DNA from: Acidobacteriota bacterium
GTDB lineage: Bacteria; Acidobacteriota; UBA6911
Assembly (NCBI GenBank): GCA_963664705.1
Contig: OY761556.1
Location: 6,208,001-6,272,000, forward strand
Direction of reading: 5' to 3'
Length of the DNA stretch: 64,000 nucleotides
Part shown: positions 33,736 to 35,466 of the stretch, piece after piece
Position numbering within the stretch: position 1 is the first letter of the stretch
Layout: each line of letters starts with the position of its first letter
Program-made: the position numbers and the translations under genes
The notes under the pieces: model-generated
Told to the model about the DNA's origin: nothing
Databases searched by the model: none
The model's input: the letters and a program-made list of their open reading frames with translations, nothing else

Positions 33736-35466
33736 TTACCGCCACTTATCAATCTGGATGGACTGCCCCACCATCAAACCGCCGGCCATCCAATAGTTGT
33801 TGTTGGATGCACCGGTGACGATGACGTTGAAGTTGCCGCCTCCCCTGGGGCCGCCGGGGGGGCCGCCAGCTCTGCCCCCGCGACCGGCTGCGGCAGCGGG
33901 TGGAGCGGCTGGGGCACCCGCGGGCGGAGTCGCAGGCTGGGTGACCCATGCGGTCAGTTTTTCGATTGAATCGTAGCCGGCATCTTTAACGAAATTGGCG
34001 ATCGGGGGGCTCAGGATAATGAAAGTCCCGAACAATCCCGGATTTTGCTGGTCGTAGATGTCTTTGATGATCTGGGGATAGTTCATGTCCGGTCCCCAAC
34101 GGTTGACTTTCCAGTTTGCCGCGGAAAGAACACCCCAGCCGTTGAGCAGCGTGACGATATTCTCACCCTCTTTGAAGCCGCGTCTGACGGCCAAAGGCTT
34201 GAATGGAGAATCCCGTTCATTTTCCGCAATGATCGTCGCAAGTGCATTCTGGGCGTTGCCTACGGTACCCATGTAAGTCGTCCCGACTTTTCCACAATTG
34301 CCGCCGTTGATGGACAGCAGGTTCCAGGCTCTTCCGATCGCAACATTGGCCTCCGCATAGGGGCCAACGGCGCCAATCTCATAGTTGAGTTTGATTTCGT
34401 CGCGAATGGGGCCATTGATGACGGCTCCACCCGCGAAGCCGTTGTCGGAAACATTTATGGATGTGATGCCGCTTGAACCCAGCGCCAGGATCACCGGGAA
34501 GTATTCCGGTTTGGCGTCGGCCATAACTGCGTTGATCGCGGCGGTCTTGACCGTATAGGTCCAGACTTCGCCGGCTTCGGACCCGGGATTCATTTTGCCG
34601 AGTACTTCGTCGGGTCGATGGCTGGTGCCTTTCAGCATCTCAGCGACCTTTTCTTCAGTCGGCAGGATCACCGGCATATAATCGGTGAATCGTTTTTCCT
34701 TGAACAGTTTCTGAAGCTCATCCGGAGTTCCGGTAAAGGTCGCCGGACCTGTAACCGGCTTTATTTCCCCGGTTTTCTTTTCTTCGGCAGTCAAAGGCTT
34801 GGTGAGTTTTTCCACCAGTTCCGGCATGACCGGTTTGCCGGTAATCGGATTCAGGCCTTCAACAATCTGCTTCTTGAGCTGTTCGTTCGTCTTTGCCCAA
34901 ACCGGGCCACGGAAGTACTGGATGCGGAGGCCGGGCATGCCGTCGTTTAACGCTACCTCAGCTTCCTGCTTGGCGAAATCGTGAATGATGAGAGGGATTG
35001 CGGGTTTCTTTAACGTAGATTCGACATTAATTGAGAGGCGGACCGCCCCTGGCGCACAGACACTTCAATGCCCCAGTCCAATGATGGCGGCGTCTCCTTT
35101 TTTTTCAATCTCTGCCCAGAGTTCTTTGTCAACGCCGACCATTCCGCCGGAACTTCTCTTAATCACCACATTGGTTTTGGGATAGTTGGCTTTGAACCAA
35201 TCCGTCATCACATCCATGAGGCGATCGGTTCCGATGTAGCCGGTGTTCACAAAATAAATAGTTTTGCCGTCCAGCGTAGCAAGCCGTTCTGCCATTGGCT
35301 TTACTGTTATGGGCGGCGGTGTGCCCATCGGGCTGAGCACCGTAATCTTAGGCATAGCCGCCGGCTTCGCTGCCACGGCTGCCTTTTTCGCTTGTGCATA
35401 AACGCCTGTCATGCCGAAGCAAAGGCCTATGCACACGATTGCAACCACTGCTATACGCAATTTCAT
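33736..35466 (-). CDS. Secreted UGSC-family-like selenoprotein, 576 aa, Sec (UGA 35065-35067) in a U-S-V-C motif
   Basis: ORFs 35065-35466 and 33736-34938 are in frame and joined by 42 stop-free codons: AAIIGLGH-U-SVCAPGAVRLSINVESTLKKPAIPLIIHDFAKQEAEVALNDGMPG. It is paralogous to 5474-7225. Confidence 0.87.
35034..35050 (-). promoter_or_regulatory. Putative bacterial SECIS element
   Basis: mRNA reads UGA-N14-AGGGGCG-GUC-CGCCUCU. It has a 7-bp stem (one G-U pair), and the loop begins with G 21 nt after the UGA. Confidence 0.7.

Follow-up and report, generated by a model that had tools for sequence, protein, structure and literature searches.

In glycine and D-proline reductase a selenolate attacks a carbon of the substrate and a thiolate then cleaves the resulting selenoether, which leaves a selenenylsulfide that dithiols reduce (PMC10298544). 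A fusion of the selenocysteine (Sec, U) domain UGSC (PF24696) to a second domain, Unknown_1, was described by Zhang and Gladyshev in 2008 (PMC2398784), and UGSC is still listed as uncharacterised in a 2026 review (PMC13188914). The family ranked with the commonest selenoprotein families of the Global Ocean Sampling data and is still without a function. As for bacteria rich in selenoproteins, the ten top entries of BSepDB hold 46–63 selenoprotein genes each and include no Acidobacteriota (PMC13326102), and the Olavius symbionts have families of 2–12 selenoprotein genes, with UGSC a single sequence (PMC1976440). The main text of a preprint on the family UBA6911 does not contain the string ‘selen’ (10.1101/2021.04.09.439258).

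The gene treated here lies in a window of 64,000 nt (the whole stretch of DNA that was analysed) from an Acidobacteriota genome. An initial annotation had joined two open reading frames across a UGA and 42 bridging sense codons, and had read the product as a diverged paralog of a second protein of the window with an equivalent UGA. Both statements were borne out. Translated with TGA as U, the focal gene is a single frame of 576 codons with exactly one TGA, at codon 134, in the context AIIGLGH-U-SVC (motif H-U-S-V-C), while gene calls under table 11 cut it into 35466-35065 (133 aa) and 34938-33736 (400 aa). The second paralog reads AIIGIGG-U-HGC and is 31% identical; a tree from a quick, unfinished search with a midpoint root was used only to place the two window paralogs in different clades. 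The bridge codons have a pN/pS of 0.33 (uncorrected, against 33 relatives), which is purifying selection like that on the flanks. Coordinates are collected in Table 1.

Table 1. Features of the focal gene and its paralog in the window
Feature	Position	Strand	Description
Full focal gene	33736..35466	(-)	576 aa, UGSC domain plus ‘Unknown_1’ domain, one in-frame TGA
GGAGG, Shine-Dalgarno-like	35475..35479	(-)	8 nt upstream of the focal gene ATG
Predicted Sec-pathway signal peptide	35395..35466	(-)	residues 1-24, hydrophobicity heuristic only
UGSC domain	34867..35340	(-)	residues 43-200, PF24696 65.3 bits versus cut-off 25
In-frame TGA, codon 134	35065..35067	(-)	inferred selenocysteine
Cys137 of U-x-x-C	35056..35058	(-)	first helix turn after the U loop in the model
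SECIS-like hairpin, 7 bp	35034..35050	(-)	AGGGGCG/GTC/CGCCTCT; GUC loop at +22 to +24, hairpin +15 to +31
Bridge, 42 sense codons (126 nt)	34939..35064	(-)	between the two called ORFs of the focal gene; purifying selection
C-terminal ‘Unknown_1’ domain	33739..34749	(-)	residues ~240-576; unmatched in Pfam/NCBIfam and, by structure, among solved chains
Pro/Ala/Gly-rich insertion, low confidence	33841..33924	(-)	residues ~515-542, pLDDT < 50 in the model
Intrinsic-terminator-like stem, 14 pairs, U tail	33678..33717	(-)	directly 3′ of the focal gene stop
Window’s other paralog	5474..7225	(-)	583 aa, G-U-H-G-C, TGA 6814-6812, own GU-loop hairpin, different clade

The TGA region of the focal gene is matched by contigs from two runs on one sample, with no other letter there; this support is not independent, because the sample is probably the source of the assembly. 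Codon 317 (window 34516-34518 (-)) encodes Asp in the focal gene, where 34 of the 35 paralogs in the genome and all close relatives checked have Gly, and Asp317 recurs in the contigs of the sample. Since it replaces a near-invariant Gly, the focal copy may be impaired. The gene stands alone, with a gene for a secreted-looking SnoaL protein convergent on one side and tatD divergent on the other. The SnoaL-like product (window 31478-33598 (+), 706 aa) has three SnoaL-like domains, a signal-peptide-like start and four further long paralogs in the genome. Elsewhere in the window are a glycyl-radical enzyme that falls below all equivalog cut-offs (52435-54882 (-)), a CheD-HDOD fusion (22633-23976 (+)) and, by inspection, a catalase-peroxidase-like ORF (37921-40128 (+)).

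It is very likely that the UGA of the focal gene is recoded as Sec and that this is a real selenoprotein gene; the family to which it belongs is known. A tBLASTn search of the genome found 35 full-length paralogs, 31 of them with TGA at the same column, always followed by x-x-C and never replaced by TAA or TAG; the other four have neither a stop nor Cys at the U position. A PF24696 search independently gave 35 matches in the genome, 31 with one TGA. Across 47 related loci, picked mostly for high similarity and with one off-register duplicate row dropped, TGA occupies all 54 distinct sites, with TAA or TAG at none, and 53 of these sites remain open for 60 codons. The argument that UGA plus Cys at +3 in two diverged paralogs is not a pair of chance nonsense mutations extends to 31 of the 35 copies and to every one of the 54 related sites, and lack of Cys/Sec at the site, which had been put forward as evidence against the selenoprotein reading, is confined to 4 of the 35 copies.

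Among the best 150 library matches, 78 are long and stop-free (five of these have no alignment at the site); 29 of the 78 have C-x-x-C there, 34 have Cys at the U position (WP_358488424.1, for example, reads G-H-C-S-T-C) and 44 lack Cys/Sec at the site, a count from which Sec forms are missing and in which non-Cys forms are over-represented, since the library consists of called proteins alone. These 44 homologs and the four local paralogs indicate that the protein can be kept without Cys/Sec. In two relatives, 17 of 58 and 12 of 45 matches have no TGA.

Machinery for decoding is present as well: selA, selB and selD each occur twice above cut-off, alongside two tRNA-Sec genes, and selB occurs in 29 of 30 genomes of the genus. 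Together with the single-site TGA and the Cys of stop-free homologs, this supports the selenoprotein reading of the initial annotation. The genes form two complete Sec systems, one a compact selB-selA-selD-selC cluster (G000:C1:3072623-3078309) and the other scattered (3461774, 3657373, 2046792 and 6559014), with 41% (selA), 34% (selB) and 48% (selD) identity between them and a TGA only in the scattered selD. Most genomes of the genus have one selB and 3 of 30 have two matches; the second decoding system was possibly acquired.

Were the UGA a true stop, the locus would hold either a pseudogene or a pair of genes, the second re-initiated at 34938. We consider this very improbable, although gene callers do split the focal gene, UGSC and Unknown_1 are separate genes in other Acidobacteriota, and 72 of the 150 best library proteins lack the N-terminal part, many of them starting just after the U site. 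Termination would cut the UGSC domain mid-way, the codon is always TGA, and the same TGA lies inside stand-alone UGSC genes; the selection on the bridge and the open frames at related sites speak against it too, and upstream of 34938 there is no Shine-Dalgarno sequence at normal spacing. Genome-wide reassignment of UGA to Trp, Gly or Cys, for which nothing speaks beyond the in-frame TGA itself, is hardly conceivable: TGA ends 737 of the 2,307 frames of at least 400 codons, the homologs have Cys rather than Trp or Gly, and the tRNAs with a UCA anticodon fit the tRNA-Sec model.

The 7-bp hairpin that had been noticed 21 nt downstream is present, its loop starting 21 nt and its stem 14 nt after the UGA. 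A G in the apical loop is a hallmark of the bacterial SECIS (PMC1976440, figure legend). Compared with synonymous shuffles the focal hairpin has p 0.013; by global folding it has no unusual stability of its own (z -0.55). Folding energy over whole windows around the site was rejected as a SECIS test, being too weak (mean z -0.69 for the 31 paralogs versus -0.4 to -0.6 upstream). Counts were also made with a hairpin rule, set post hoc after the sequences had been seen: a perfect stem of at least 4 bp, GU within loop positions 1-3, a loop start at +15 to +24, and -3 kcal/mol or lower. The rule is satisfied after 19 of the 31 UGAs, versus 5.7 expected from synonymous shuffles, and at 355 of 17,636 other codons (2.0%), 11 of 737 true TGA stops (1.5%) and none of the four non-Sec paralogs. 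Twelve of the 31 Sec paralogs fail it; five copies of a D-U-G-S-C clade have longer irregular stems that it misses.

Three codons of the stem are fixed among the 36 sequences of the focal clade (GGG 33/33, CGC 33/33, CTC 34/34), as against 2 of 140 other conserved codons, and the mean over codons +4 to +11 is only slightly raised (0.71 versus 0.66). Covariation downstream of the UGA had been suggested as a check: among 30 sequences of the focal clade the stem is 93% paired and invariant, with no compensatory change, and a neighbouring clade has, by eye, one compensatory pair (T-A to C-G at +15/+25).

The start of the protein looks like the proposed signal peptide by a hydrophobicity heuristic. 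It combines two basic residues with a hydrophobic stretch (best 11-residue Kyte-Doolittle mean 3.24) and carries V-Y-A ahead of Q25, and starts of the same type recur across the paralogs: a hydrophobic N-terminus is found in 27 of the 31 Sec paralogs and a twin-arginine-like start in one more, so that 28 of 31 appear export-like with start codons chosen by eye, versus 11 of the 78 stop-free library homologs. Export of the focal protein by the Sec translocon is accordingly a prediction that we regard as likely.

By its sequence, the focal gene is a UGSC domain fused to Unknown_1, a known family without an assigned function. All 35 paralogs score above the PF24696 cut-off. For the equivalog model NF041046 (cut-off 125) the focal protein scores 35.6 bits, four other paralogs 0-93 bits and a stand-alone UGSC 146 bits. 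The C-terminal domain has an A-I-N-A-V-M-A...P-E-Y...N-G-P block that matches, by eye, the Unknown_1 alignment in PMC2398784 (Fig. S1A). The conserved Cys of Unknown_1 (A-G-C) corresponds to Ala318 in the focal protein; it is Cys in 3 of 35 paralogs and 85 of 150 library matches. The polar positions D262, T270, E271, N351, N374, R379 and E415 of Unknown_1 are invariant. Six library proteins of ~715 aa (P0030, P0036, P0062, P0068, P0072 and P0126) have two matches each to the C-terminal part; they lack UGSC and apparently consist of Unknown_1 in tandem.

The AlphaFold2 model of the mature focal protein (pLDDT 86.7, pTM 0.86) places U after a strand and Cys137 at the start of a helix. The UGSC part of the model resembles receiver, flavodoxin and Rossmann-like folds, with tied best Z scores of 10.7 to 10.1 and a fitting strand order; no thioredoxin fold is among the top 50 structural rows, though families outside those rows could still match. 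One match, chain 8s7v_H of the complex that activates methyl-coenzyme M reductase (Z 10.2, rmsd 4.2, 138 aligned), ties with unrelated folds and was set aside. Foldseek with the whole model gave generic alpha/beta matches only, and a PDB sequence search with both alignments gave no match below E 0.4.

Profile comparison was more specific. HHalign of 54 UGSC domains against 20 Sec domains of the GrdB/PrdB type (PF07355, a profile that includes two full-length GrdB) gave 96% at a pairwise E of ~1e-9, with U-x-x-C in register. The match stayed at 95.9% with the UxxC motif masked and at 94% against the two full-length GrdB, while controls gave 3.0% (receiver), 0.4% (SDR) and 0.5% (thioredoxin-like). 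This profile evidence makes the UGSC domain a homolog of the domain that carries Sec in GrdB/PrdB. Short stand-alone PrdB/GrdB-like proteins, with a TGA directly after the Pfam match and the motifs P-V-U-P-x-C and G-G-U-P-x-V-C, are common in Acidobacteriota (L132-L149).

Folded alone, the C-terminal domain also gives a confident model (pLDDT 86.7, pTM 0.87), for which the best Z among 48,161 solved chains is 3.1 and Foldseek returns nothing at E <= 0.001; weak Foldseek matches to fumarate hydratase were not trusted. As modelled, the domain is probably an unsolved fold, its newness unproven, and a confident model without a solved relative makes it a target for structure determination. The idea that Unknown_1 is a relative of GrdE/PrdA or of the GrdB N-terminal part was unsupported (GrdE/PrdA 0.6%, from a profile of only three sequences). 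PF07355 has no match in the focal genome, nor in the four genomes of this genus within a sample of 301 genomes of the phylum, of which 77 match. A search for PF09338, the pyruvoyl partner GrdE/PrdA, gave nothing in the focal genome and succeeded in both positive-control genomes. With neither GrdE nor GrdB found, the genome lacks the partner that activates the substrate in the known enzymes.

We propose, with a probability of about one half, that the focal protein is a periplasmic two-domain enzyme that uses a selenium nucleophile of the GrdB/PrdB type on a small substrate and is re-reduced through DsbD and thioredoxin, with substrates varying among copies. Given the single frame with U-x-x-C, the GU-loop hairpin and complete selA/selB/selC/selD, Sec would be inserted at U134 and the product exported to the periplasm by the Sec translocon. 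Unknown_1 would bind and activate the substrate in place of GrdE/PrdA, the selenolate of U134 would attack the substrate so held, and a bond of the C-N, C-S, N-O or S-O type would be cleaved reductively. Cys137 would resolve the intermediate as a selenenylsulfide, to be reduced by DsbD and a periplasmic thioredoxin-like protein. Diversification of the 35 paralogs in substrate would then equip the genus with a whole set of selenoenzymes outside the cytoplasm.

The reductant side of this proposal is approached through related loci. DsbD was found in all five genus genomes searched. In other Acidobacteriota, Unknown_1 is preceded in its own chain by an AhpC/TSA (ResA-like) domain and is encoded next to a separate UGSC gene with U-G-S-C, and in four genus genomes a thioredoxin-reductase-like gene (308-311 bits, below the TIGR01292 cut-off of 343) directly precedes stand-alone UGSC. 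It does so in a conserved operon (L120, L122, L126 and L127, in G014, G038, G040 and G006) with the order thioredoxin-reductase-like, stand-alone Sec UGSC, DUF6282, stand-alone Unknown_1, two DHDPS-family genes, non-Sec fusion, Sec fusion, CoA-transferases III and MaoC, flanked by xanthine-dehydrogenase-type molybdoenzymes. We take this operon as the best lead to a substrate of the cytoplasmic forms.

These same thioredoxin-like and thioredoxin-reductase-like partners, and the U-x-x-C at a helix start, would also suit a real exported selenoprotein that is a general redox enzyme of the envelope, acting in thiol-disulfide exchange, peroxide or sulfoxide reduction or protein repair; thiol oxidoreductase activity is the role supposed for most UxxC selenoproteins of bacteria (PMC2398784). 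We rate such a role as unlikely, with the modelled fold not thioredoxin-like and the profile score against the thioredoxin-like set at 0.5%; a conserved partner domain of 340 aa and 35 divergent copies seem to fit specific substrates better than a role in general detoxification.

Around the 35 copies, neighbours are heterogeneous (114 flanking ORFs, with esterases, molybdo- and tungstoenzymes, TonB-type receptors and transporters), and those of the focal copy are not conserved in the related loci compared. A secreted family of ~190 aa, DUF4352-like, has nine copies in the genome (L045:5897-6511, L038:14072-14644, L029:3672-4238, L054:11647-12180, L056:6013-6630 and others), eight of which directly adjoin exported UGSC fusions other than the focal gene; such genes adjoin UGSC fusions also in G006 and G101. 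Its product is a candidate partner subunit of the exported fusions. This arrangement, with several paralogs beside TonB-type receptors, could also be expected of a binding, sensing or scaffolding protein for a metal, metalloid or organic ligand; Sec/Cys would then itself be a ligand and not a catalytic nucleophile. The receiver/flavodoxin-like fold with its tied match to 8s7v_H would be compatible with such a protein, as would the homologs without Cys/Sec and the matches without TGA in the two relatives. The non-Cys forms are, however, over-counted in a library of called proteins, and the GrdB homology with the motif in register and the reductant partners favour catalysis; a binding role appears improbable.

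The suggestion of an expanded family with varied UxxC motifs proved right on a larger scale than two copies: the 35 copies are 22-75% identical to the focal one, and the U-x-x-C of 31 of them comes in 11 or more variants. PF24696 matches, which are not exact copy numbers and come from related, non-independent genomes, number 9-58 per genome in all 30 genomes of the genus (median 18.5, total 635), whereas a set of 97 further genomes from the class, 20 of which share its family, has none in 77 and 1-3 in 20. In two relatives the matches number 58 and 45, of which 41 and 33 contain TGA by hand count; a few of these matches are frameshifted fragments, and the two genomes show contamination of 8% and 5%. 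Of 18 named records with close homologs, 17 are from Acidobacteriota (two labelled UBA6911) and one is from a Desulfobacteraceae.

Four near-identical H-U-S-S-C copies lie at distant sites (2633620, 3995132, 4763530 and 6758045), with DUF4352-like neighbours 95-100% identical, which points to recent duplication and an ongoing expansion, or to strain mixing in the assembly. The Sec/Cys-free paralogs are at 444388, 2728380, 2730356 and 5837963, two of them a divergent pair beside two DHDPS-family genes; these four are possibly inactive partner subunits.

In total the genome has at least 41 selenoprotein genes, 31 of them UGSC (about three quarters from one family), a lower bound because de novo TGA screens are noisy or insensitive. 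The ten other TGA genes of known Sec families are SelD, FdhA, two DUF1573, two MvhD and, judged by motif and Cys paralogs, four redox-type genes (two rhodanese-like, one thioredoxin-like and one AhpF-N/Grx-like). In-frame TGA candidates at G000:C1 4261972(-), 4666877(-), 4399622(-), 3151564(-), 2244737(+) and 2412510(+) comprise an AhpF-N/Grx-like, two rhodanese-like, a thioredoxin-like and two genes without family.

Taken as a single gene this is an ordinary find; what deserves attention is the expansion, together with the homology. As a tentative and rather doubtful generalization, this uncultured genus may have made one orphan selenoprotein into as many as ~40 exported enzymes in a genome, all with a GrdB-type Sec domain joined to a new-fold domain, that reductively cleave or respire varied organic compounds in the periplasm. 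If so, this would rank as the largest expansion of one selenoprotein family in prokaryotes, in cells with near-record selenoproteomes, and glycine/proline-reductase chemistry would extend outside the cytoplasm, without the pyruvoyl partner. Gene callers cut at the UGA, which hides about 30 enzymes per genome from annotation. Homology to GrdB/PrdB, links to thioredoxin and tens of divergent exported copies in one genus make this a testable hypothesis with many natural variants. A literature search found no report of the expansion or of the UGSC-GrdB homology; Haft and Tolstoy 2025 (mSystems e01417-24), the BSepDB entries and most supplements lay outside that search and may list these genes.

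The focal protein shares with thioredoxin-fold UxxC selenoproteins (Trx-, Prx- and DsbA-like) the U-x-x-C at a helix start, as modelled, and differs from them in the fold of the model and in the lack of profile similarity. Some thioredoxin-fold UxxC selenoproteins are likewise exported. With GrdB/PrdB it shares a homologous Sec domain, with the motif in register and followed by a common E-x-x-G-I-P segment, and the association of thioredoxin-type reductants in related loci; unlike them, it has no PF07355 match, no PF09338 in its genome, an unrelated fused domain and predicted export. The likeness is thus to how these enzymes work, and is not a claim of membership.

To the orphan UGSC family and the 2008 fusion it conforms in the UGSC domain above the Pfam cut-off, the U-x-x-C and the Unknown_1 block. 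It departs from the family in having H-U-S-V-C in place of U-G-S-C, in falling below the NF041046 equivalog cut-off and in the signal-peptide-like starts (28/31 Sec paralogs here against 11/78 stop-free library homologs), and from the 2008 fusion in having Ala for the conserved Unknown_1 Cys, as also in 31 of 35 paralogs. A Trx-like fold was supposed in the 2008 paper (PMC2398784), whereas our model suggests a flavodoxin/Rossmann-like one. What sets the gene apart from the known family is predicted export, divergent motifs and a genus-wide expansion. Like Olavius Delta 1 and other selenoprotein-rich bacteria of the Desulfobacterota, this organism has a large selenoproteome, but about three quarters of it comes from one family, while families in the Olavius set have at most 12 genes (PMC1976440).
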